A stretch of DNA of 64,000 bases from an uncultured Alphaproteobacteria bacterium. GTDB taxonomy: Bacteria; Pseudomonadota; Alphaproteobacteria; SP197. The notes under the pieces are model-generated. The model was not told the origin of the DNA. It saw nothing but the letters and a program-made list of their open reading frames with translations, and ran no database searches. The stretch lies in assembly GCA_938048755.1 (NCBI GenBank), contig CALIUG010000072.1, forward strand, positions 3,258-67,257. Reading direction: 5' to 3'. How positions within the stretch are numbered: the stretch's first letter is position 1; each line of letters starts with the position of its first letter. Position numbers and translations under genes: made by a program. Of this stretch, positions 300 through 63,549 are shown one piece after another.

Positions 300-880
300 C
301 GGCCAGTGGCGGCAACCCGAACGGGTGTTTCGGGCTGATGTCGCCTCTCTCCTTTGTCGTCCTCCGGCTTGACCGGAGGACCCATGCTGTTGCGTCCCGG
401 CATGTGCCCATGGCGGTGTGTGGCGTGGTGGAAAGGTGCGTGCATGGATCCCCGATCAAGTCGGGGATGACAAGGTAGGTTGAGAGAGAAGCGCAGCACG
501 ATGGGCAGGAGCGGGCGCGACCGGGTGGTTCTGGCTGACGTCGCCTCCCCCGTTTGTCGTCGCCCGGCTTGACCGGAGGACCCGCCGCAGCGTGGCGGCC
601 TTCGCCCATGACGATAATGGGGCGGTGGAGAGGTCCGTGCATGGATCCCCGATCAGGTCGGGGATGACAAGGGAGGTTGAGAGAGAAGCGCAGCACGATG
701 GGCAAGAGCGAGAGCGACCGGGTGGTTCTGGCTGACGTCTCCTCCCCCATTTGTCGTCCTCCGGCTTGACCGGAGGACCCATGCTGTTGCGATGCGGCAT
801 GCGCCCATGACGGTGTGTGGCGTGGTGGAATGGTCCGTGCATGGATTCTCCGATCAAGTCGGAGAATGACTCAATGGATA
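300..880. repeat. tandem array of about 3 copies of a roughly 198-bp unit; each unit is a MITE-like element (about 125 bp) bounded by palindromic inverted repeats plus a roughly 70-bp spacer
   Basis: The marker catggatc recurs at 443, 640 and 840. Each unit starts with ..tttgtcgtcctccggcttgaccggaggacccatgc and ends with gcatggatccccgatcaagtcggggatgacaagg. The two ends are about 80% reverse-complementary, and each is itself a stem-loop. The spacer cagcacgatgggcaggagcgggcgcgaccgggtggttctggctgacgtcgcc also repeats. Confidence 0.85.
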
Positions 881-957
881 GAAAGCCGGATGGGTGTGCC
901 GCTCCGGGTCGACAGGCTGGTCAACAGTGCTTGGCGCCGGGGCCGGACGGGTGTTGA

Positions 958-2178
958 ATGGCGACCATGACAGATCGTTGCGATATCGCCATCGTGGGTG
1001 GCGGCCTGAACGGACAGACGGCGGCGCTGGCGCTGGCCCGCGCCGGCTTTGACGTCGTGATCGTGGAACGGGGCGACCCCGCCGCGAAACTGACTGATGC
1101 CTTTGATGGCCGGGTTTCCTCCATCGCCTATTGCTCCAAGCTGGTGCTCGACGCCCTGGGTGCCTGGGACGGCATGGCCGAACACGGCGAACCGATTCTG
1201 GAGATCCGTGTCTCGGATCGCGATGTGCCGCTCTTCCTGCATTACGACCATGCCGATGTCGGTGACGAACCGCTGGGCTGGATTCTGGAAAACCGGTTCA
1301 TCCGACGCGCCCTGGATGCAACGCTGGCCGCCACGCCGGGCGTGCGTGTTCTTGCCCCTGCCGAGGTCACCGACATGACGCGCGATGGCAACGGCGCGAG
1401 CCTTGCCATGGCCGACGGCGCCAGCCTTGCCTGTTCCCTGGTCGTGGCCTGTGACGGCGCGATGTCACCCATGCGCACAAGTGCCGGCATCAGCCACTGG
1501 AACCACGCCTATCACCAGCAGGGCATCGTCTGCACGGTGCGTCACGAACGACCCCATCGCGGCATTGCCCATGAACGGTTCCTGCCGTCGGGCCCCTTTG
1601 CCATCCTGCCCATCCCCGGCAACCTGGCTTCTCTGGTCTGGACCGAGAAGGACGCCATCGCCAACCGGGTCATGACGCTGGAACGCGACGACATTCTTGA
1701 AGAGATTGCCTGGCGTTTCGGTGATTTTCTGGGTGAGCTCGAACTGGTCGGCCCGGTCTGGAACTATCCCCTGCGTCTGGTGCTGGCGGACCGTTACACC
1801 GACCATCGCTTCGCGCTGCTGGGGGATGCCGCCCATGCCATCCATCCCATCGCGGGCCAGGGCTTCAATCTGGGCATCCGCGATTGCGCCGTGCTGGCCG
1901 AAGTGCTGGCCGATGGCCGGCGCCTGGGGCTCGAGCCCGGCGATGCCAGCCTGCTCGCCAACTATGCCCGCTGGCGCCGTACCGACATGATGGCGCTGGT
2001 GGCCGTGACCGACAGCCTGAACCGGCTGTTCTCCAATGCCCTTCCGCCCGTCGCCCTGGCGCGTGATCTGGGCCTTGCCGCGGTTAACCGCGTGCCGCCG
2101 CTCAAGAAGCTCTTCATGCGCCACGCCATGGGTACTGTCGGCAAGCTGCCCCGCCTGATGCGCGGCGAGTCTCTTTAG
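958..2178 (+). CDS. FAD-dependent ubiquinone-biosynthesis hydroxylase, UbiH/UbiF/VisC/COQ6 family
   Basis: 406 aa. N-terminal DIAIVGGGLNGQTAALALA Rossmann dinucleotide motif. The whole length is typical of 2-octaprenyl-6-methoxyphenol hydroxylase-type flavin monooxygenases (GDAAHAIHPIAGQGFNLGIRD). Confidence 0.8.
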   Translation: MATMTDRCDIAIVGGGLNGQTAALALARAGFDVVIVERGDPAAKLTDAFDGRVSSIAYCSKLVLDALGAWDGMAEHGEPILEIRVSDRDVPLFLHYDHADVGDEPLGWILENRFIRRALDATLAATPGVRVLAPAEVTDMTRDGNGASLAMADGASLACSLVVACDGAMSPMRTSAGISHWNHAYHQQGIVCTVRHERPHRGIAHERFLPSGPFAILPIPGNLASLVWTEKDAIANRVMTLERDDILEEIAWRFGDFLGELELVGPVWNYPLRLVLADRYTDHRFALLGDAAHAIHPIAGQGFNLGIRDCAVLAEVLADGRRLGLEPGDASLLANYARWRRTDMMALVAVTDSLNRLFSNALPPVALARDLGLAAVNRVPPLKKLFMRHAMGTVGKLPRLMRGESL

Positions 2179-2180
2179 CC

Positions 2181-2522
2181 GTGCAGACGCTGGGCGTCGT
2201 GCCACGCCTGTTTCCCGACGTCCTGAGCGGAGCCAAGACCTCCACCATCCGCTGGCGCGAGACCCGGATTCGTCACGGCTACATGACCTATGTCTGTGAT
2301 GGTGCACCCGACCGGACCGTGGTGGTCTGGGTCACACGCTGCACGGATGTGCCGTTGCGTGATGCTGCCGCCTTTGTCGGGCGCGAGGATGACTGGCCCG
2401 ACACCGTGATGCTGGATGGCATGCGCGAACACTATCCTGCGATCACGCTAGAGGATGTCGTGCAGGTGGTGGAACACCTCACACCCGACGAAACCCGCGC
2501 GCGGCCGGACTTCCCCTGCTGA
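2181..2522 (+). CDS. ASCH (PUA-like) domain protein
   Basis: 113 aa with a GTG start. The motif SGAKTSTIRW...GY resembles ASCH domain proteins. It abuts the UbiH-family gene. Confidence 0.5.
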   Translation: MQTLGVVPRLFPDVLSGAKTSTIRWRETRIRHGYMTYVCDGAPDRTVVVWVTRCTDVPLRDAAAFVGREDDWPDTVMLDGMREHYPAITLEDVVQVVEHLTPDETRARPDFPC

Positions 2523-2528
2523 GCCAGG

Positions 2529-3809
2529 TCAATCCCGTCCCGGTTCCGGGACCGTGCGCAGGATCAGCAGGCCCAGCAGCATCAGGACAACGATGACGCC
2601 CATGCCCAGGCGCTGGCTGTCGGTGGCAAAGGCAACCAGGCCGACCAGCAGGGGTCCGGCAAAGCTGGTGAATTTGCCTGACAGGGCAAAGAACCCGAAC
2701 ATCTCGCCGGTCATATCAGGCGGCGTCATGCGCGCCATCAGCGAGCGGCTGGCCGATTGCACCGGGCCGATGAAAAGGCCCAGCACCAGACCCAGGATCC
2801 AGAACCACAGGACGTCCTCGACGATCAGGATTGCTGCGCTGACCACGATCAGACAGGACAGGGTCAGGAAGAGCGTCTTGCGTGCACCGACCCGGTCATC
2901 CATCCAGGCAAAACCGAAAGCGCCCAGCCCAGCGGAGATGTTGAGCGCGATGGCAAAGGTCAAAACGCCTTCTTCGTCCATGGCAAAGGTCGTGGCGGCG
3001 TAAACCCCGCCCAGCGCAAACAGTGTGTTGAGGCCGTCGATATAGAGCAGGCGCGCGATCAGGAAACGCACGATGTTCTTGTGGCGGCCCAGTTCGCGCG
3101 CGGTCTCGACCAGGCGGCGCATGCCGTTGCGGGTTGCAGCACCGATCGTGACACGCGACGACACGCGGTCGGGTGCCCACACGAAGAGCGGCCAGCCGAA
3201 GAAGAGGTACCAGCCTGCCACCAGCAGGGCGACCACGCGCACATGTTCGGAGTTTGCCTTGTTCAGACCGAAGGGGGCCTGGGCGGGCATGATGAAGATG
3301 AAGAGCGCGGCACACAGGCACGCGATGCCTCCAGCATACCCCAGGCCCCAGGCCCAGCCCGACAGCCGCCCGATGTTCTTGGGTTCGGCCAGGTCCGGCA
3401 GCATGGCGTTGTTGAAGACCGTGCCGGTCTCGAACCCGACATTGACCAGGGCAACCAGGATCAGCGTCGGGATGATCCAGAACGGATCGGGTGCGGCAAA
3501 CCACAGGCCCGCCGTCGCCAGGATCGTGATGGCGCTGAAGAACCCCAGCCAGGGCTTGCGCGGTCCAGAGGCATCGGCAATGGCACCGGTGATCGGCGAC
3601 AGCACGGCAATGATCAACGCCGAAGCGGCAATGCCCCAGCTCCACAGCGCCAGCCCCTCGGCCTCGTTCCCGACAATGCCGCGTGCGAAATAGGGTGCGA
3701 AGACAAAGGTGACGACCACGGTCGGCGTGGGCGAATTGGCCCAGTCGAACAGGCACCACGCGGCAATCCCCCGTTTCTTGACGGGTCGGTCGAGTTGGAC
3801 GGCGGCCAT
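2529..3809 (-). CDS. MFS transporter, UMF1 (Atg22-like) family
   Basis: The CLFDWANSPTPTVVVTFVFAPYF signature typifies the UMF1 family. About 12 predicted TM segments. Likely start MAAVQLDRPVKKRG at 3809. Confidence 0.75.
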   Translation of the reverse strand: MAAVQLDRPVKKRGIAAWCLFDWANSPTPTVVVTFVFAPYFARGIVGNEAEGLALWSWGIAASALIIAVLSPITGAIADASGPRKPWLGFFSAITILATAGLWFAAPDPFWIIPTLILVALVNVGFETGTVFNNAMLPDLAEPKNIGRLSGWAWGLGYAGGIACLCAALFIFIMPAQAPFGLNKANSEHVRVVALLVAGWYLFFGWPLFVWAPDRVSSRVTIGAATRNGMRRLVETARELGRHKNIVRFLIARLLYIDGLNTLFALGGVYAATTFAMDEEGVLTFAIALNISAGLGAFGFAWMDDRVGARKTLFLTLSCLIVVSAAILIVEDVLWFWILGLVLGLFIGPVQSASRSLMARMTPPDMTGEMFGFFALSGKFTSFAGPLLVGLVAFATDSQRLGMGVIVVLMLLGLLILRTVPEPGRD

Positions 3810-3931
3810 GGATGCTCCGGTGCTGGTGGGCACACTCTAATGCAGTTTGCGCGTGTTGCGAGCCTGCGCATGCGGGTTGGCCATGGCTGTCACATGCTCT
3901 AGGGAAACAGAGACAGTTTCAGGAGCATCCC

Positions 3932-5041
3932 ATGGCCGACCTCTTCGACCCCCTCACCCTGCGTGGTCTTACCCTGCGCAACCGCATCGGGATTTCACCG
4001 ATGTGCCAGTACGCCAGCGAGGATGGCTTTGCCGAGAACTGGCATCTCGTGCATCTGGGCAGCCGTGCGGTCGGCGGCGCCGGGCTGGTGATCGCGGAGG
4101 CCAGCGGGGTCGAGGCGCGCGGCCGTATCACGCCGGGTTGCCTGGGCATCTGGAAGGACGAACACATCCCCATGCTGGCCGCCATCACGGAGTTCTGTCG
4201 TGAACAGGGCGCGGCCACGGGCATGCAGATCGCCCATGCCGGACGCAAAGCCAACGTCAACGAACCCTGGCTGGGCGACCGCACGCTGCTGGCCGACGAA
4301 GGTCCCTGGGAAGCCATCGCGCCCATGGCTGAGGCTTTCGATGCGCCCGATGGCGCGATCACCCACACGCCGCGCGCCATGACGGAGGACGACATCACCG
4401 GGGTGATCGGAGCCTTCGGTCAGGCCGCGCGCCGCTCGGTCGAGGCGCGCTTTGATCTTGTGGAGATTCATGGTGCCCATGGCTACCTGATCAACGAATT
4501 CCTCTCGCCCTTCACCAACCGGCGCGATGACGCCTGGGGTGGCGACTTCAACAGCCGCATCCGGTTCTGCATCGAAATAGTACGTGCCTGCCGCAGGGTC
4601 ATGCCCGATGCCATGCCGCTGCTCATCCGCCTTTCCTGTGTCGAGTGGAAGGACGGCGGCTGGACCCTGGAAGACACCGTCGCCCTGGCGCGCCTGCTCA
4701 AGGCTGAGGGCGTGGACATGATCGATTGCAGCTCCGGCTTCAACGTGCCCGACGAGTCCTATCCCTCCGGCCCGCTCTGGCAGGTGCCGTTCGCCCAGCG
4801 TGTGCGCCACGAGGCCGGCATCGCCACCGCGGCGGTCGGCGCCATCATGCGCCCCGATGAAGCCAACGGGATCATCACCAATGGCGAGGCCGACCTGGCG
4901 CTGATTGCCACCGCCTCGCTGCATGATGCCTACTGGCCCTGGCACGCCGCCATGGCGCTGGGCCGCGAAGAAGCGCTCCAGATGCCGGTCTCCTATGACT
5001 ATGTCCTGCGCGGCGGCTACGACGACGAAAGCGATGCGTGA
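3932..5041 (+). CDS. NADH:flavin oxidoreductase, Old Yellow Enzyme family (NamA/YqjM-like)
   Basis: Start MADLFDPLTLRGLTLRNRIGISPMCQY with RBS aggag at 3921-3925. OYE TIM-barrel motifs are present (HGAHGYLINEFLSP, GGRxxENRxRF). Confidence 0.85.
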   Translation: MADLFDPLTLRGLTLRNRIGISPMCQYASEDGFAENWHLVHLGSRAVGGAGLVIAEASGVEARGRITPGCLGIWKDEHIPMLAAITEFCREQGAATGMQIAHAGRKANVNEPWLGDRTLLADEGPWEAIAPMAEAFDAPDGAITHTPRAMTEDDITGVIGAFGQAARRSVEARFDLVEIHGAHGYLINEFLSPFTNRRDDAWGGDFNSRIRFCIEIVRACRRVMPDAMPLLIRLSCVEWKDGGWTLEDTVALARLLKAEGVDMIDCSSGFNVPDESYPSGPLWQVPFAQRVRHEAGIATAAVGAIMRPDEANGIITNGEADLALIATASLHDAYWPWHAAMALGREEALQMPVSYDYVLRGGYDDESDA

Positions 5042-5874
5042 TGCCTTACCTCACCACCGATGACGGTGTGCGTCTCTGGTACGACGACAGCGGCCATGCC
5101 TCCGGCCCGGTCGTGGTCTTTGCCCACGAGTTCGGCGGTGACCCCAGAAGCTGGAACGATCAGGTCGCGGCCTTTGCGCCGACATCCCGCTGCATCCGTT
5201 ACGCCGCGCGCGGCTTTGCCCCCTCTGACGTACCCCCGGACAAGGCCTCCTATGGCCAGGACCGCTCCACCCGTGATCTCGAACAGCTCGCCGATCATCT
5301 GGGCCTTGACGGCTTTCATCTGGTCGGTTGTTCCATGGGCAGCTTCACCAGCCTGATGTTTGCCTGCCGTCATCCCCGCCGCTTGGCTTCGCTCACCCTC
5401 TGTGGTGTCAGTTCCGGACCCCATGATGATGCAGAACGGGCGGCCTATCACGCCGGTCTGAACCAGGAGATCGCCATGCTGGTCGATGGCGCGGGCGAAG
5501 GGTCGGCGCGCTGGTTCCGTGATGACATCGCCAATGCAACCCTGGCCGCCAAACACCCCCGGCGCTGGGACGACTACCTGGAACGCACGCTCCATCAGTC
5601 CCATCACGGCGCGCTGATGACGGTCAGAACACTCCACTGGGATCGCATTTCGCTCAGGACAATCACGGATGAACTCGCCGCCATTCAGGCCCGGGTCCTG
5701 CTGATTTACGGCGAAGCAGACCTGCCCCGCGTCGACGAAACCAGCCGCTGGCTTGCCGAAGTTCTGCCCCATAATCGCCTGTGCCCGATACCGGGAGCCA
5801 GCCATCTGGTGCAGGTCGAGGAGCCGGAGCGCTTTAACGAAGAGCTCCGACTCCTGCTCGAAGGGTCAGACTGA
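5038..5874 (+). CDS. alpha/beta-fold hydrolase
   Basis: ATGA overlap with the upstream gene. VVVFAHEFGG oxyanion region and GCSMGS nucleophile elbow (GxSxG). 278 aa. Confidence 0.75.
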   Translation: MMPYLTTDDGVRLWYDDSGHASGPVVVFAHEFGGDPRSWNDQVAAFAPTSRCIRYAARGFAPSDVPPDKASYGQDRSTRDLEQLADHLGLDGFHLVGCSMGSFTSLMFACRHPRRLASLTLCGVSSGPHDDAERAAYHAGLNQEIAMLVDGAGEGSARWFRDDIANATLAAKHPRRWDDYLERTLHQSHHGALMTVRTLHWDRISLRTITDELAAIQARVLLIYGEADLPRVDETSRWLAEVLPHNRLCPIPGASHLVQVEEPERFNEELRLLLEGSD

Positions 5875-5890: not shown

Positions 5891-7108
5891 CTAACCCTTC
5901 ACGCATACGACCTGCTTGAGCGTGTGCACCACGTCGATCAGATCCGACTGCGCCGCCATCACGGCATCGATCGACTTGTAGGCCGCGGGTGTCTCGTCGA
6001 TCACACCCTTGTCCTTGCGGCATTCCACGCCGGCGGTTGCAAGCGCGTGATCCTCCACCGTGAAGGCCTTGCGTGCCGCCGTTCGGCTCATCGCCCGCCC
6101 GGCCCCATGGGAGCAGGAGCAGAACGATGCGGCATTGCCCTTGCCACGCACGATGAACGACTTCGCGCCCATGGAGCCTGGAATGATGCCCATCTCACCC
6201 TCGCCGGCGCGCACTGCGCCCTTGCGGGTGACCCAGACATCGGCACCGTAGTGATGCTCACGAGCAACATAGTTGTGGTGGCAGTTGACGGCCGCCGCAT
6301 CGACCGTGAACGCGGGCAGGTGCTCGCGCAATGCCGCCAGGACGGCCTCCATCATGGTTTCCCGGTTGGCCCGAGCGAAATCCTGAGCCCATCCGACCGC
6401 CTCGACGTAGTCGGCGAACACAGGTTCATCATCCTCGAACCAGGCAAGGTCCTGGTCTGGTACCGCAGCTGCCCCTTCACGCTGGGCCAGCATGTTGCGC
6501 GCCTCTTCGATGAAGAGCGTGCCGATACCGTTGCCCACACCACGGCTGCCGGAATGGAGCATCACCCACACGCGGTCCTCCTCATCCAGGCAGAGCTCGA
6601 TGAAGTGGTTCCCGGTGCCCAGTGAACCCATGTGAATGACATGGTTGGCCTGGCCGATCGCGGGCCGTTTGTCGGCAATGCGTCCGAGGCGTTCGGAGAG
6701 ACCGCTTTTGACGAACTGCCTGGCGATGGGATCAGGCACACCGTTCTTCCAGCCGCCCTTGGGACCGATCCCGCCATGGGGTACGGCCTTTTCTATGCCC
6801 GACCGAATTGCGGCCAGACTGTCGGGAAGCTGGTCTGCCGTCACGCTGGTGCGCCAGGCCATCATGCCGCAACCGATATCGACACCCACGGCCGCCGGAA
6901 TGATGGCACCCCTTGTGGGAATGACCGAACCGATCGTGGCACCACGGCCCAGATGCACGTCGGGCATGACCGCGACATGGATGTGCACGAAGTGCATGGC
7001 GGCGATGTTCTTGACCTGCTAGCGCGCCCGCTCCTCGACCGGCACGCCGTCGATCCACGCCCGGATGGGTGCACCACGGGTTTCGATGATCTGCGACTTG
7101 TCTTCCAT
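5891..7108 (-). pseudogene. rtcB: RNA ligase RtcB interrupted by an in-frame TAG at 7019-7021. It could be a nonsense mutation, a sequencing error or a read-through site. The downstream 368-aa ORF (5891-6997) is intact.
   Basis: The upstream ORF (ATG at 7106-7108, RBS ggaggagg) reads MEDKSQIIETRGAPIRAWIDGVPVEERAR, then TAG, then QVKNIAA-MHFVHIHVAVMPDVHLG in the same frame. This matches the E. coli RtcB N-terminus MNYELLTTENAPVKMWTKGVPVEADARQQLINTAKMPFIFKHIAVMPDVHLG with the TAG at the position of a Gln. The rest carries RtcB motifs (GVDIGCGM, HNHAGRE-like metal ligands). Confidence 0.7.
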
Positions 7109-21640: not shown

Positions 21641-21715
21641 TGGAGCGGGCGATGAGATTCGAACTCACGACCCCAACCTTGGCAAGGTTGTGCTCTACCC
21701 CTGAGCTACGCCCGC
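21641..21715 (-). tRNA. tRNA-Gly (anticodon GCC), CCA encoded
   Basis: Reverse complement GCGGGCGTAGCTCAGGGGTAGAGCACAACCTTGCCAAGGTTGGGGTCGTGAGTTCGAATCTCATCGCCCGCTCCA. It forms a cloverleaf with anticodon loop CUUGCCAAG. Confidence 0.9.
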
Positions 21716-40487: not shown

Positions 40488-41117
40488 ATGACCCAGACAC
40501 GATGGTGGTGGGTGCGCCATGCACCGGTGACCGAAACCAACGGTCGGGTCTATGGCTCGACCGACCCCAATTGCGACACCGACAACCTTCCGGCCTATCA
40601 GGCACTCCACGCCATTCTGCCCGAGGATGCGCACTGGGTGACAAGTCACCTCAGGCGCACCAAGCAGACGGCTGCCGCCATTGCTGCGGCCGGCGGACGC
40701 AACATCGATCCGGCCGAGGAGCCGGGTCTGGGCGAACAGGATTTCGGCGACTGGCACGGCATGACCTATGACGAGATCTATGCCCTGCCGACGGCACGCC
40801 GCTTCTGGCTGGCACCCGCGACCATGCCGGCGCCCAATGGGGAGAGCTTTGCCGATCTGTGTGTGCGTGTCACCCGCGTGATTCACCGGCTGACGGCCGA
40901 ATGGGCAGGACGCGACATCGTTGCGGTTGCCCATGGCGGCACGATTCGCGCGGCACTGGCCCTGGCGCTCGATCTTGATCCCGAGACCGGCCTGCGATTC
41001 CAGACCGACAACATCTCGGTCACCCGGATCGACCATTTCGACGGTGATGACGGCCATGCCGAGAGCTGGCGCGTCACCTATATGAACCGCCAGCCGCATA
41101 TGCCGCCGAAGGAGTAG
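40488..41117 (+). CDS. cobC: alpha-ribazole-phosphate phosphatase (histidine phosphatase family)
   Basis: WWVRHAPV (RHG motif variant), and later AHGGTIRAAL. Positioned between cobS and cobU. RBS aaggaacc. Confidence 0.8.
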   Translation: MTQTRWWWVRHAPVTETNGRVYGSTDPNCDTDNLPAYQALHAILPEDAHWVTSHLRRTKQTAAAIAAAGGRNIDPAEEPGLGEQDFGDWHGMTYDEIYALPTARRFWLAPATMPAPNGESFADLCVRVTRVIHRLTAEWAGRDIVAVAHGGTIRAALALALDLDPETGLRFQTDNISVTRIDHFDGDDGHAESWRVTYMNRQPHMPPKE

Positions 41118-41124
41118 TTTCGCG

Positions 41125-41286
41125 CGTAGCGGCGCTCGCGACTCTCTGCTAAGAACGCTGGAAGTAGGAACGAGACGAGGGAAGCCGGTGTGATGCCGGT
41201 GCTGCCCCCGCAACTGTAACGGTGAGATCCGAAGCGTTGACCCACTGGCAAAGCCCCAAAAGAGGGCAAAGCCGGGAAGGGGCTTC
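41125..41286 (+). promoter_or_regulatory. cobalamin (AdoCbl) riboswitch in the leader of cobU-cobW-cobN-cobO-...
   Basis: AGGGAAGCCGGTGTGATGCCGGTGCTGCCCCCGCAACTGTAACGG is the B12-box/core region. ACCCACTGG is a variant of the GCCACTG element, and GCCGGGAAGGGGC is a variant of the GGGAAGGC element. Spacing and order are correct. cobU RBS GGAGGGAGG follows. Confidence 0.75.
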
Positions 41287-41361
41287 ATGGGATCGTCGAG
41301 CCGAAGCCAGGAAACCTCCCCCGTTCCGCCCTGGACCACGCGCGCCTCGGAGGGAGGTCGG

Positions 41362-59642: not shown

Positions 59643-60884
59643 ATGGCAAGAGCGAGCGACTTCATCGATCAGCAACGCCTGTGGGATCGTCACATGGCGA
59701 TTGCCAGGTTCGGCGAAACCGGCAACGGCGGCGTCAACCGTCAGGCACTGACGCCAGAAGACGGCATGGCGCGGGCAGCCCTGGCCGGATGGGCCGGGGA
59801 ACGCGGGTTTCGCCTGATCGCCGATGAAGCCGGGAATCTGTTCGTGCGCCGTGACGGCACCGATCACGATGCACCTGCCATACTTTCGGGCTCCCATCTC
59901 GATACCCAGCCGGCCGGCGGCAACTTTGATGGCATCTATGGCGTGCTGTCGGCGTTTGAAGTGCTCGAAGCGCTCGAGGATGGGGGGCTGGAGCACCGCC
60001 ACCCCATCGAGGCGGTTGTCTGGACCAACGAGGAAGGGTGCCGTTTCGCACCGGGTTGCACCGGCAGCCTGGTTTTTTCGGGCCAACACGAGATCGAGGA
60101 GTTTCTCGATGGTACCGCGCCAGACGGTGCGGTGCTGCGCGACGAGCTGGAACGCACGCTTGCCGCCACACCCGATGCCGAGCAGCGCAGGGGCGGCATT
60201 CCCATGGCCGGCTACATCGAAACCCATATCGAGCAGGGGCCCAGGCTGGAAAGCGAGGGGCTCACGATCGGCGCCGTCACGGGCATCCAGGGTGGCAGTT
60301 CGTTCGAGGTCACCGTCACCGGGATCGACGGTCATGCCGGAACCGTGCCGCTGTTGCAGCGGCGCGACGCCTTCCGCTCGGCCCATCAGATCATCGATGC
60401 GCTTCACCGGGATCTGGCAGACCCCACCGACACGGTGCGGTTTACGGTGGGCCGGTTTGAGACCTATCCGGGGTCGCCCAACACGATTCCGGGCAAGGTC
60501 ATTTTCACGATCGATTTCCGCCACCCAGATCAGGCGTTCTTCCGCGAAAAGGTCGACGGCATGGCTGCGTTCATTGCCGCCCATGCCGGCCCCTGTGATG
60601 TTGTGGTGCAGAAACGCCATGCCGGCGACCCGGCTGACTTCGACGAAAACGTGATTGCCCGCATCGAGCGCATCGCGGGCGAACTCGCGATTCCCGCCAT
60701 GCGTATGCCCTCGGGCGCCGATCACGACGCCAAGTACATGGTGCCGCTGGCCCCGACCGGCATGATCTTCGTGCCGTGCCTGAGCGGCATCAGCCACAAC
60801 GAAGACGAACGCGCGACCCCTGAGGACCTCGCCGCCGGCGCCCGCGTGCTGGCAGACGCCCTGCTGGAAATGGCGCGGGGCTGA
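59643..60884 (+). CDS. M20-family Zn amidohydrolase (N-carbamoyl-amino-acid hydrolase, allantoate amidohydrolase or beta-ureidopropionase type)
   Basis: SGSHLDTQPAGGNFDGIYGVLSAFEV and C-terminal HNEDE motifs of the AllC/carbamoylase clade. 413 aa. Confidence 0.8.
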   Translation: MARASDFIDQQRLWDRHMAIARFGETGNGGVNRQALTPEDGMARAALAGWAGERGFRLIADEAGNLFVRRDGTDHDAPAILSGSHLDTQPAGGNFDGIYGVLSAFEVLEALEDGGLEHRHPIEAVVWTNEEGCRFAPGCTGSLVFSGQHEIEEFLDGTAPDGAVLRDELERTLAATPDAEQRRGGIPMAGYIETHIEQGPRLESEGLTIGAVTGIQGGSSFEVTVTGIDGHAGTVPLLQRRDAFRSAHQIIDALHRDLADPTDTVRFTVGRFETYPGSPNTIPGKVIFTIDFRHPDQAFFREKVDGMAAFIAAHAGPCDVVVQKRHAGDPADFDENVIARIERIAGELAIPAMRMPSGADHDAKYMVPLAPTGMIFVPCLSGISHNEDERATPEDLAAGARVLADALLEMARG

Positions 60885-60907
60885 CACCCGGGAGCAAAAC
60901 AAAAGAA

Positions 60908-61116
60908 CTGTCGTCCTCCGGCTTGACCGGAGGACCCATGCACCGAACGAAGCCACACCCACGGTTCTGCGATTTGCCGCTATACAAGCCGGTCATAGAG
61001 ATCGTCCCAATCAGGATTGTTCTCTTCGACCGGCTGGTGCAGCGCCACCAAACATGACGTGGCGCTGTTGCCTGCAACACAGCATGGATCCTCCGGTCAA
61101 GCCGGAGGATGACAAG
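60908..61116. mobile_element. internally deleted, inverted copy of the GIY-YIG cassette: two 34-bp palindromic TIRs flanking only the last about 50 nt of a GIY-YIG ORF (minus strand)
   Basis: TIR ctgtcgtcctccggcttgaccggaggacccatgc at 60908-60941 and its inverse gcatggatcctccggtcaagccggaggatgacaag at 61082-61116. The internal minus-strand ...VEENNPDWDDLYDRLV* equals the C-terminus of the intact gene at 61422-61706. Confidence 0.75.
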
Positions 61117-61137
61117 TTGGGGGTGGGTCGCGGTGGC

Positions 61138-61305
61138 TCAACGCATACCTTCCTGCATCGCGGAGCCACTGTTGGTGGTCCAGGTCTGGTGGGTGGTGAA
61201 GGAACCTTCCTTGCCAGCTAGGGCTAAGACGATGGTGGCGATTTCGTCGGGCTGGGCGATACCCTGACGGAAATGATGCGGGGCCGATGCCTTAGGACAC
61301 CCTAT
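61138..61305 (-). pseudogene. 3' fragment of a second SDR gene (last about 50 codons with its own TGA stop)
   Basis: Minus-strand ...PDEIATIVLALAGKEGSFTTHQTWTTNSGSAMQEGMR* is about 70% nt-identical to the 3' end of the SDR at 61789-62532 (PDEIAAVALALAGKAGAFTTGQVWSVNGGSAMP*). Truncated at the TIR at 61311. Confidence 0.7.
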
Positions 61306-61310
61306 CAAAA

Positions 61311-61779
61311 CTGTCGTCCTCCGGCTTGACCGGAGGACCCATGCTGTATCCTCGAAGCCGTTTCACGCCACTCTGACAAGCTGGACCGGCACACCGGCAA
61401 GCGGCAGATTGTGCGTTAGCCATGGCCTACTTCGTCTACATTCTGGCCAGCCAGAAACGCGGAACACTCTATGTCGGCGTGACGAACGATATAGCCCGTC
61501 GCGCATGGGAACATCGCGAGGGAACTGTGTCGGGCTTCACCAGGCAGTATGGCGTGAAACGGCTTGTGATGGTGGAGACCTATGACGATGTGCGCGATGC
61601 GATCCAGCGCGAGAAACGCCTGAAACACTGGAACAGAGAATGGAAAATCGCACTGATCGAAGAGAACAATCCTGACTGGGATGACCTCTACGACCGTTTG
61701 GTTTAGCGCCATTGAACAAGGTGGGGTGCTGTTGCCAGCGATACAGCATGGGTCCTCCGGTCAAGCCGGAGGACGACAA
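61311..61779 (+). mobile_element. 469-bp cassette: small GIY-YIG nuclease gene bounded by 34-bp self-palindromic terminal inverted repeats (intact copy)
   Basis: TIR-L 61311-61344 (ctgtcgtcctccggcttgaccggaggacccatgc), TIR-R 61746-61779 (gcatgggtcctccggtcaagccggaggacgacaa). The same TIR recurs 7 times in the window. Confidence 0.7.
61422..61706 (+). CDS. GIY-YIG nuclease family protein (UPF0213/YhbQ-like), 94 aa
   Basis: MAYFVYILASQKRGTLYVGVTNDIARRAWEHREG: GIY...YVG motifs, and the conserved R and E of the GIY-YIG fold. Confidence 0.85.
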   Translation: MAYFVYILASQKRGTLYVGVTNDIARRAWEHREGTVSGFTRQYGVKRLVMVETYDDVRDAIQREKRLKHWNREWKIALIEENNPDWDDLYDRLV

Positions 61780-61788
61780 AGTGTGAGC

Positions 61789-62532
61789 TCACGGCATTGC
61801 CGAGCCGCCGTTGACGCTCCAGACCTGGCCGGTGGTGAAGGCACCGGCCTTGCCGGCGAGCGCCAGGGCGACGGCTGCGATTTCGTCGGGCTGGCCGACG
61901 CGGCCCAGAGGGATGTCGGTTTCGCGCGCCATGATCTCGGGCGTGATGCCGTCCAGAAGTAGGGGCGTTTCGACCGGGCCGGGGCAGACGGCGTTGACCA
62001 GAATGTCGGGGCCGAACTCCCTGGCCCAGACGCGGGTGAGGCCAAGGATGCCGGCTTTCGAGGCGCAATAGGCTGAACGTTCCTTCCAGCCGAAGAAGGC
62101 ATGGTCGGATGCAATGTTGATGACCCGTCCGCCTCGTCCGTGGGCTGTCATGGCACGGATGGCTTCGCGCCCGGTCAGAAAGACGCCGGTGAGGTTGACG
62201 CCGATCACCCGGTTCCAGTCGGCAAGCGAGGTTTCGGTGAGCAGGCCGTCATCGGCGATACCTGCGCTGGCAACGCTGAGGTCAAGGCCGCCCATCCGCG
62301 CGACAGCTTCCGCCACGCCTTCGGTCATGGCGGCTTCGGCGGTGACATCCAGCTGCAATCCGAAGGATTCGCCACCCGCCGCAGTGATGTGGTCCTGTGT
62401 GGCCGAGGTGTCGGCCTGATCGATCAGGGCGATCTGCGCACCCTCTTCAGCAAAGGCCCGGGCGATGGCCGCACCGATGCCGCTGGCCGCACCGGTGACC
62501 AGAGCCGCCTTGCCGTCGAGAAATCCGCCCAT
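61789..62532 (-). CDS. SDR-family oxidoreductase (3-oxoacyl-ACP-reductase-like)
   Basis: TGAASGIG cofactor motif, NNAG-like, and the catalytic S...YxxxK (YCASKAG). 247 aa. Confidence 0.85.
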   Translation of the reverse strand: MGGFLDGKAALVTGAASGIGAAIARAFAEEGAQIALIDQADTSATQDHITAAGGESFGLQLDVTAEAAMTEGVAEAVARMGGLDLSVASAGIADDGLLTETSLADWNRVIGVNLTGVFLTGREAIRAMTAHGRGGRVINIASDHAFFGWKERSAYCASKAGILGLTRVWAREFGPDILVNAVCPGPVETPLLLDGITPEIMARETDIPLGRVGQPDEIAAVALALAGKAGAFTTGQVWSVNGGSAMP

Positions 62533-62619
62533 GGGTTCTTGCCTTCAAGGTTGTGCTGGACGCGCGAAGCGTATCGGGATCATTCTAGACGAGATTGAAA
62601 CGGCTTGAAGGCTGCTGCC

Positions 62620-63549
62620 ATGACCCCAGAAGCAATCCTTGCGTTTCCTGCCCGCGTGCTGACCCAGAAACAGCGCGAGGCCTATTTCGAAACCGGTTAT
62701 GCCCTGGTGGAGAGTCTGATCCCTGAAGACGTGATCGACCACCTGAATGACGTGACCCAGTCCTTCATCGAGAAGAGCCGGTCCATGACCAAGAGCGACC
62801 GCGAACTCGATATCGGGCCCGGCCACACGCCGGAAAAACCTGTGGTGCGTCGCCTGACCGCGCCCGACCGGATGCACGATGCCTATTGGGAGTTCGCCAA
62901 CGGTATCATCGCCGATGCCACGGCCGATCTACTGGGCCCGGATGTGACGTTCAACCACTCCAAGCTCAACTTCAAATGGTCGGACGGACGCGACCAGGTG
63001 AAGTGGCACCAGGACATCCCGTTCTATCCCCACACCAACTACAACGTGCTGGCTGTGGGCTGTTACCTCAGCGATGTCAGCGAAGACGACGGACCCATCG
63101 GCGTTCTTCCCGGCAGCCACAAGGGACCGATCTTCGAGCATTTCGACGACAACGGTGTTTGGACGGGCGCCATCCGGGATGATGACATGGCGCGCTTTGA
63201 CACCGATGATGCGGTTTACCTGCCGGGACCCAAGGGCTCGATCACGATCCATCACAGCCGTGCGGTCCATGGCTCCAGGCCCACGACCCGGGCCAACGGA
63301 CGTCCCCTGCTGATCAATGCCTATGCTGCAGCCGACGCCTTCCCCTACACCAGCCCCAAGGCCTCGACCTCGTATCACTACCGCGACCTGGTGCGTGGCA
63401 ACCGTGCGACCTGGGCCCATCTCGACCCCGAACCCTGCCCGGTTCCGCCCGACTGGGGCGACGGCTACACCTCGCTCTACGCCTTCCAGGGCGGCGAAAA
63501 CGCGGAAGCCACCCCACGCGATCCCGGGTTCCGGGTCGCGGCGGAGTAG
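62620..63549 (+). CDS. phytanoyl-CoA dioxygenase (PhyH) family Fe(II)/2-oxoglutarate oxygenase
   Basis: HQD...H iron triad (WHQDIPFYP, HSRAVHGS) and length typical of PhyH or ectoine-hydroxylase-like enzymes. Confidence 0.75.
   Translation: MTPEAILAFPARVLTQKQREAYFETGYALVESLIPEDVIDHLNDVTQSFIEKSRSMTKSDRELDIGPGHTPEKPVVRRLTAPDRMHDAYWEFANGIIADATADLLGPDVTFNHSKLNFKWSDGRDQVKWHQDIPFYPHTNYNVLAVGCYLSDVSEDDGPIGVLPGSHKGPIFEHFDDNGVWTGAIRDDDMARFDTDDAVYLPGPKGSITIHHSRAVHGSRPTTRANGRPLLINAYAAADAFPYTSPKASTSYHYRDLVRGNRATWAHLDPEPCPVPPDWGDGYTSLYAFQGGENAEATPRDPGFRVAAE

Follow-up and report, generated by a model that had tools for sequence, protein, structure and literature searches.

The closest described relative of the locus reported here is the Ssn system of Neisseria, in which a very small nuclease acts on a hairpin repeat. 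Chenal et al. (Nat Commun 2025; PMC11893778) characterised SsnA of N. meningitidis as a 94-aa single-domain GIY-YIG nuclease (CDD cd10448), which binds only the single-stranded DNA (ssDNA) form of the hairpin repeat NTS (CGTCATTCCCGCGMAVGCGGGAATCYRG) and cuts a few nucleotides upstream of it, leaving the reverse strand, duplex DNA and RNA untouched, and whose cleavage is abolished by the substitutions Y6A, Y17A and E64A. Motifs of this kind (SRMs) were reported at 71% of bacterial homologue loci and on both sides of the gene in 42%, and the authors, remarking that NTS-ssnA-NTS looks like an insertion sequence (IS), proposed domestication (PMC11893778). No later literature on Ssn mobility was found in the collection searched. 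The present analysis concerns a 64,000-nucleotide stretch of DNA from an uncultured marine alphaproteobacterium (contig CALIUG010000072.1; hereafter the window), in which a 94-aa GIY-YIG open reading frame (ORF), here called ssn, is bracketed by inverted 34-nt hairpin repeats at 61311-61344 and 61746-61779, and gene-less pairs of the same repeat form a tandem array at 318-870.

The same repeats had been surveyed earlier by Di Nocera et al. (BMC Genomics 2013; PMC3733652) as CGTC-tagged REPs, which are common in alphaproteobacteria, lie mostly downstream of genes and occur mostly as head-to-head dimers, with an 8-9-bp stem starting with AT, a 4-5-nt loop and a CCA tail; no dedicated enzyme was found in that survey. 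The window repeats resemble these elements (which include Neisseria dRS3 and Rickettsia RPE-4/6) in the 9-bp AT-starting stem, the 5-nt loop, the CCA tail, the preponderance of head-to-head dimers (often heterodimers) and the predominance in alphaproteobacteria, but differ in flanking a GIY-YIG gene, as in the 2025 paper, and in that most of their tags read TGTC instead of CGTC. RAYT/REPIN systems (REPtrons) offer a further parallel, with a usually single-copy nuclease gene between inverted hairpin repeats, dispersed inverted doublets, and vertical inheritance of the repeat with long persistence. However, the window enzyme is a hydrolytic GIY-YIG nuclease and not an HUH/Y1 transposase, the tag is GTC instead of GTAG, and the Ssn system has no known covalent intermediate or strand transfer. 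Hairpin ends recognised as ssDNA are likewise shared with IS200/IS605 elements, the Y1 transposase of which, in contrast, cuts both ends on the same strand and yields ssDNA circles without target duplication. GIY-YIG homing endonucleases (I-TevI, Seg) have the catalytic fold and the selfish-looking gene placement in common with the window gene, but are longer than 200 aa, carry separate DNA-binding domains, act on dsDNA targets and reside in introns or phage genomes.

Comparison with these systems leads us to read the window ORF as an Ssn-family nuclease and the 34-nt repeats as its cognate SRMs, at a locus with the history reconstructed below, and we give this reading as a whole a probability of roughly 0.8. 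In the protein, the Pfam GIY-YIG domain is matched over residues 3-75 (E=1.4e-15) and no other domain is present. Membership of the Ssn family has been defined as E<1e-10 against Neisseria SsnA (PMC11893778); against N. gonorrhoeae, the window protein gave E=7e-24 in tblastn and, in BLASTP with a 94-aa gonococcal ORF, E=2e-34 with 48 of 90 residues identical (53%) in a gap-free alignment scoring 100 bits. The gonococcal ORF is taken to be ssnA because of its 94 aa and its location among 13 copies of the published NTS motif, which surround it within 1.7 kb (L168, NZ_CP119140.1 1881575-1883244); the plasmid collection includes 2.17-Mb N. gonorrhoeae chromosomes mislabelled as plasmids. In an alignment of seven homologues, Y6, Y17 and E64 are invariant, as is a C-terminal motif (W.R.WK..LIE..N..W.DL) common to Ssn homologues only. 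The first-pass annotation had called the protein UPF0213-type, an assignment that does not stand beside the 100 bits to gonococcal SsnA: a sequence search of PDB matched only two distant UPF0213 structures, 1zg2 (35 bits, E=9e-8) and 1ywl (24 bits), and no Ssn structure. NCBIfam holds no specific model for the protein, and the group I intron endonuclease model scored 17.5 bits against a cut-off of 56. The nuclease is the only ORF within the SRM-bounded unit, where no transposase-type ORF (DDE, HUH, serine or tyrosine recombinase) is present, and the window carries one intact ssn copy. The intact unit (unit B) and the hairpins of a decayed unit upstream of it (unit A) comprise the following features, in which L001 denotes the sister-lineage locus used for comparison.

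61422-61706, plus strand: ssn gene, encoding a 94-aa single-domain GIY-YIG nuclease of the Ssn family (Pfam; gonococcal homology)
61311-61344, plus strand: SRM3, left hairpin of intact unit B (34-mer search, inverted repeat, regular-expression search, fold)
61746-61779, minus strand: SRM4, right hairpin of unit B (34-mer search, inverted repeat, regular-expression search, fold)
61707-61745, no strand: 3' spacer from the ssn stop to SRM4, 39 of 39 positions identical to L001
61355-61375, no strand: leader stretch of 21 nt, the reverse complement of ssn codons 42-48 (19 of 21 positions complementary to 61545-61565)
60908-60941, plus strand: SRM1, G-type (GTCGTCC...GGACCC), outer left end of decayed unit A (exact 34-mer; relaxed regular expression)
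61082-61115, minus strand: SRM2, A-type (GTCATCC...GGATCC), with a strict match to the published regular expression at 61084-61114 and a fold of -10.1 kcal/mol

A search with the 34-mer CTGTCGTCCTCCGGCTTGACCGGAGGACCCATGC at up to three mismatches returned six sites in the window, with 0 expected from shuffles, namely 354(+), 751(+), 60908(+), 61082(-, 3 mismatches), 61311(+) and 61746(-, 1 mismatch); a degenerate seventh lies at about 554-587. The arms bracketing the ssn ORF extend to 39 nt and are 100% complementary (61312-61350 and 61740-61778), which bears out the arrangement of a 94-aa ORF between inverted repeats as first annotated. The hairpin character attributed to the repeats was likewise borne out by DNA folding, each intact SRM forming a 9-bp stem with a 5-nt loop at -10.1 to -10.9 kcal/mol (z -3.7 to -4.8), with -10.9 kcal/mol for the hairpins next to the ssn gene and also for SRM1, which is identical in L001. 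The A-type follows the layout TGTCAT-CCTCCGG-CTTGA-CCGGAGG-AT-CCA, and in the G-type an A:T pair is replaced by G:C. The published SRM expression, HGTCWYN(0-2)YYVSBRHN(0-5)WNVSBRGN(0-2)RNCYNB, was hand-drawn from 29 genomes (PMC11893778) and is tested within 500 bp either side of ssn. Taken literally, it gave four matches in the 64 kb, every one within the two repeat clusters; on the 5' side of ssn it matches strictly at 61084-61114, while the 3' copy at 61748-61778 fails by one base (W is G). With one position freed for a compensated stem pair, the other five good copies and one chance match were recovered, making nine good copies in 64 kb, all of them paired.

The likeness to the Ssn/NTS system thus extends from the 94-aa single-domain protein, with its Y6/Y17/E64 residues and 53% identity to the gonococcal orthologue, to the placement of the gene between oriented hairpins (GTC tag, 8-9-bp stem, 4-5-nt loop, CC(A) tail) and to the many gene-less repeat copies elsewhere. 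The differences lie in the stem (CCTCCGG in the window against TCCCGCG), in the compensated G:C pair of the gene-adjacent copies where the published motif has A:T, in the tags, which point outward in the window and inward at the gonococcal locus, and in the host, an uncultured marine alphaproteobacterium for which a role in transformation is not to be assumed.

Comparison with the sister lineage (L001-L006), which has the same layout of both units and an intervening gene fragment at an average of ~94% DNA identity over the aligned locus, indicates that the gene and its hairpins are maintained. Over the four SRMs, 1 position in 136 differs from L001, compared with 58 of 440 positions in the other non-coding DNA of the block (Fisher p=1.3e-6). 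The 3' spacer is unchanged over its 39 nt, and the ssn genes, 93.7% identical, differ by 11 synonymous and 5 non-synonymous codons. The surviving ssn gene and all four hairpins are kept by purifying selection or by concerted evolution among repeats. The complementarity of the leader to codons 42-48 falls to 12 of 21 in L001, without compensation; regulatory RNA pairing was therefore ruled out for this stretch, which is regarded as a relic and probably derives from an inverted gene fragment.

Apart from its hairpins, unit A retains pieces of the nuclease gene, and the block as a whole lies between two convergent genes, one of which, a short-chain dehydrogenase (SDR) gene, recurs as a fragment within it.

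59643-60884, plus strand: M20-family peptidase gene, left neighbour of the block (Pfam Peptidase_M20, E=5e-23)
60980-61030, minus strand: inverted relic of the ssn 3' end (VEENNPDWDDLYDRLV followed by a stop), matched by tblastn to residues 79-94 at 61030-60983
61022-61042, plus strand: direct ssn relic LFDRLVQ, in which the stop TAG has become CAG, overlapping the inverted relic by 9 nt (CTCTTCGAC)
61138-61308, minus strand: pseudogene fragment of the SDR 3' end, a direct repeat of the intact SDR gene (alignment)
61789-62532, minus strand: intact SDR gene, right neighbour of the block (Pfam adh_short_C2, E=6.5e-60)

The upstream unit at 60908-61116, with its inverted relic of the last 16 ssn codons, was correctly recognised in the first-pass annotation, as were the SDR fragment as a diverged duplicate and the proximity of SDR stops to the repeats. 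The fragment is 77% identical to the intact gene (61155-61259 against 61794-61898), with clear homology over ~40 codons only, and an SRM is found 22 nt from the stop of the fragment and 9 nt from that of the intact gene. The direct ssn relic at 61022-61042, the 21-nt inverted copy of codons 42-48 and the partner hairpins of the array described below come in addition to what that annotation had noted. Its description of the element as caught in the act finds no support, the arrangement being both old and decaying, since it is common to the ~94%-identical lineage and is further decayed there, where L001 has an additional 13-nt deletion in the ssn relic and an additional 30-nt deletion in the SDR fragment. 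The L001 fragment also carries a stretch of 39 nt (5764-5802) that is 100% identical to its intact SDR gene (6373-6411) and diverged in the window, which argues for gene conversion in the sister lineage.

The two relics of unit A meet at a 9-nt quasi-palindrome, CTCTTCGAC, at 61022-61030. From there, the right arm of unit A (61022-61115) gives a gap-free alignment at 81% identity with the right end of unit B (61686-61779). The inverted relic shows 84% DNA identity to 61657-61711, and over its 15 ssn codons outside the junction codon all eight nucleotide differences from the intact gene are synonymous (chance ~7e-7). The relic is therefore read as coming from another ssn copy that diverged while functional, which indicates that a second, diverged and once-functional ssn copy formerly stood at the same site in the opposite orientation.

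The earlier call for empty sites in relatives was answered when species-representative genomes were scanned with the M20 peptidase and orthologous loci were recovered in metagenome-assembled genomes of uncultured marine Alphaproteobacteria/Rhodospirillaceae. In L017, the M20 protein of which is 95% identical, the M20 and SDR stops are 7 nt apart and both ssn and SRMs are absent; the ~900-nt block of the window is thus an insertion into the spacer between convergent genes. In three other lineages this spacer is occupied by different sequence, of 409 nt (L018, 2170-2578), 290 nt (L020, 5237-5526) and 126 nt (L023, 5237-5362); other SRM-type hairpins are contained in the filler of L018 and L020, and an ssn gene in none of the three. 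It appears that the spacer has been colonised repeatedly and that hairpin repeats have landed in it more than once. An apparent SDR relic spotted by eye in L018 was dropped, as BLAST gave it no support. Directly after the M20 spacer, L001 carries CTAAAGCAT, which matches CTAACGCAT of L017 (the SDR stop and two codons) and therefore places the insertion point 9 nt into the end of the SDR gene. Besides the intact gene, the locus consequently holds two further versions of this end, namely the fragment and the 9-nt relic. The left flanks of the two units are homologous (ATCAAAGAAC and ATCAAAAC), and so are their SRM-to-SDR junctions (AGT...GTGGC and AGTGTGAGC). The simplest reading of these homologies would be one tandem duplication of flank, ssn unit, junction and SDR 3' end. 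The comparison shows that the block entered the 7-nt spacer after the split from the L017 lineage. The flank, the ssn unit, the junction and ~120-170 nt of the SDR 3' end would then have been tandemly duplicated, and of the two resulting copies the upstream one would have lost its gene and recombined with part of the other ssn copy.

The second repeat cluster of the window, at which gene-less derivative copies had been suspected (near 300-880), proved to be a regular array.

318-870, no strand: tandem array of 2.8 copies of a 197-nt unit (Tandem Repeats Finder, TRF), each unit being a gene-less inverted SRM doublet
354-387(+), 444-472(-), 554-587(+, degenerate), 641-669(-), 751-784(+) and 841-871(-): SRMs of the array (motif searches, folds)

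The partner hairpins of the array have different stem sequences, which are fully compensated, and the array is placed between divergently transcribed amidase and UbiH-type genes, upstream of both. Two other assemblies carry an array identical to that of the window. In L160, with a 98% identical UbiH protein, there are two units against three in the window, which agrees with the copy-number variability first proposed, and in L161 (87%) the site is empty. L161 has a single copy of the target motif CGACGGGTGTT; in the window, related copies stand at either flank of the array and within every inter-unit linker. The array thus fits an insert bracketed by a repeat of its target sequence and amplified by unequal crossing-over, with an ambiguous extent of duplication; homology between the inter-unit linker and the right flank of the 197-nt array was not robust.

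Several further observations were made around this cluster. In a metagenome contig (L156, 1-350, against window 600-965), the last array SRM is joined to a different upstream gene, either because the assembly is chimeric at the repeat or because copies of the SRM have truly rearranged with each other. Of the five contigs with an identical UbiH-type protein, three break just upstream of its gene, as expected at a repeat. Further along, a BrnT/BrnA toxin-antitoxin pair lies between ASCH-domain and MFS transporter genes in L160 (4140-4653) and between UbiH-type and MFS genes in L163 (85%; 3777-4273), where a call for the ASCH gene is absent. In the window (2181-3833) the pair is absent, with 6 nt between the ASCH and MFS ORFs; its presence is a strain-level insertion polymorphism.

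Beyond this host lineage, homologues of the window protein at five loci (L007, L011, L102, L166 and L167; 59-77% identical in the seven-sequence alignment) stand in unrelated gene neighbourhoods, such as cyclase/HTH-Smr in L007, radical-SAM/MarR in L011 and TPR/GMC oxidoreductase in L166. Each of the five is flanked by hairpins of the same frame with a stem sequence of its own, and at least 10 different stem sequences with perfect pairing kept were counted across all the DNA compared. The exact 31-nt version of the SRM was found in 58 metagenome stretches, which together hold 124 SRMs and ~40 tight inverted doublets, with an ssn homologue in 4 of the 58 within the DNA retrieved. An identical 31-nt SRM flanks ssn homologues of 46-60% identity on AT-rich contigs (L102, 1291-1710; L103; L110, 380-760), so that, among distant hosts, conservation of the repeat far exceeds that of the protein; the ssn copy of L110 has an in-frame stop. 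Judged from these sequences, the pattern is that of one nuclease gene and many repeats, as in RAYT/REPIN.

Four points weigh against the assignment and history favoured here. Both SRMs that directly flank ssn miss the literal published expression at one base. The GTC tags of the nearest SRMs point outward in the window and at four of the five other non-Neisseria loci, whereas those of the nearest gonococcal NTS copies point inward, so that tag orientation is not fixed in the family. The inverted relic of unit A is left unexplained by a simple tandem duplication, and the order of events at the locus is drawn from two filled lineages and one empty one. A more conventional account would see the hairpins as ordinary REP-like structural or RNA elements (terminators or mRNA stabilisers), to which the GIY-YIG gene is adjacent by accident. 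It agrees with the situation of the ssn-locus copies between convergent genes, 9-22 nt past SDR stops, downstream of genes as REPs mostly are (PMC3733652), and with the many SRM copies, the majority, that have no ssn nearby. Nevertheless, a search for a GC-rich stem followed by a T-run found 0 sites in 60500-62700, and the 318-870 array lies upstream of both its divergent neighbours, which together rule out the terminator version; an Rfam scan of the whole window found no family covering the hairpins (its sole matches were a cobalamin riboswitch at 41115-41337, 78 bits, and a tRNA gene at 21644-21715). Moreover, hairpins flank six independent ssn loci, the window included, and 42-71% of homologues in the published set, and Ssn proteins bind such motifs specifically in vitro (PMC11893778). 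Incidental adjacency is thereby rendered very improbable. We hold it to be just as improbable that the gene is a free-standing GIY-YIG homing endonuclease, which would cut dsDNA in or near SDR-type genes and be copied by break repair. The threefold SDR 3' end and the stretch of the L001 fragment converted by the intact SDR gene are what such an enzyme might leave behind; the 94-aa protein, however, has no DNA-binding domain, unlike homing GIY-YIG enzymes, its homologues adjoin unrelated genes, and characterised members of the family leave dsDNA uncut (PMC11893778). Targeting of SDR 3' flanks, one of two options first offered for the fragment, is rejected in view of the same unrelated neighbours and would not be needed, because one tandem duplication would account for the fragment; the other option, duplication together with the flank, agrees with the homologous left flanks and junctions.

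The alternative that deserves more thought would make SRM-ssn-SRM a cassette that moves autonomously, in the manner of an IS or a homing element, with its nuclease mobilising both the cassette and the gene-less doublets. Inverted hairpin ends with a nuclease gene inside, filled and empty sites at both clusters (L017 and L161), the second, diverged and once-functional ssn copy at the same site in opposite orientation, the occurrence of homologues in unrelated contexts and different lineages, and a 9-nt SDR-end relic to the left of the block with the SDR end retained, compatible with target duplication, all speak for it, and the same hypothesis was raised for the Neisseria genes (PMC11893778). 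On the other side, cutting in a single orientation would cut each strand once and give no excision, as we infer from the published specificity (PMC11893778). The arrangement is stable over ~6% DNA divergence, and, besides the orthologue, no homologue above 77% identity was found among 5.8 billion proteins, which gives no hint that the gene has recently spread in multiple copies. The duplicated borders, of tens to >100 nt, are unlike transposase target duplications; the candidates for the latter, the 9-nt SDR relic and the repeated CGACGGGTGTT, come from two sites only, both overlaid by tandem duplication. GIY-YIG enzymes cut DNA by hydrolysis and are not known to catalyse strand transfer, and any spread would therefore proceed via host replication or repair and not by cut-and-paste. 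An autonomous cassette is thus a doubtful, though not negligible, explanation. Of the mobile cassette proposed in the first-pass annotation, the insertion (relative to the empty site of L017) and the belonging together of gene and repeats are retained, while a transposase and, within the 64 kb, near-identical copies are lacking.

If the locus is an Ssn nuclease gene with its cognate SRMs, as we prefer, homology to the enzymes of Neisseria, N. elongata, N. wadsworthii and Wolbachia suggests that Ssn would bind the SRM only as a single-stranded, folded hairpin and would hydrolyse the bound strand a few nucleotides 5' of the GTC tag. Because the tags point outward, the predicted cuts would fall just outside the unit, one per strand. 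Dispersed SRMs occur mostly between genes, as inverted doublets without a gene of their own and as tandem mosaics. The long duplicated borders and tandem arrays may fit break-induced or slippage-type copying, a suggestion that we make with low confidence. For the host, the enzyme could serve propagation of the repeat, restriction of SRM-tagged incoming ssDNA as in Neisseria, or both. The further proposal that ssn and its SRMs form, or until recently formed, a truly mobile cassette, with Ssn as the missing mobilising enzyme of CGTC-type REPs, is rather unlikely; under it, one nick per strand just outside the outward-facing hairpins would provoke break-induced copying, by which the unit would be inserted and tens to hundreds of nucleotides of flanking target would be duplicated. 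The 197-nt array, the SDR fragment and the 9-nt relic of the SDR end would all arise in this way. Should it be true, the locus and the empty sites of L017 and L161 would be the first comparative evidence for such a mechanism.

The organisation had been thought not to be described; a tiny GIY-YIG gene bracketed by hairpins was, however, published in 2025, with its IS likeness noted by the authors (PMC11893778), so that no new category is opened by the present locus. Its value would be that of a worked example in an uncultured marine alphaproteobacterium, with empty and filled sites both for an ssn cassette and for a gene-less doublet array, to which it adds copy-number change in near-identical strains, a decayed second gene copy and near-invariant hairpins in decaying DNA. 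Such data are modest comparative evidence on the question that the published work leaves open, namely whether Ssn spreads its repeats, as RAYTs presumably do in RAYT/REPIN systems, or only acts on tagged ssDNA.

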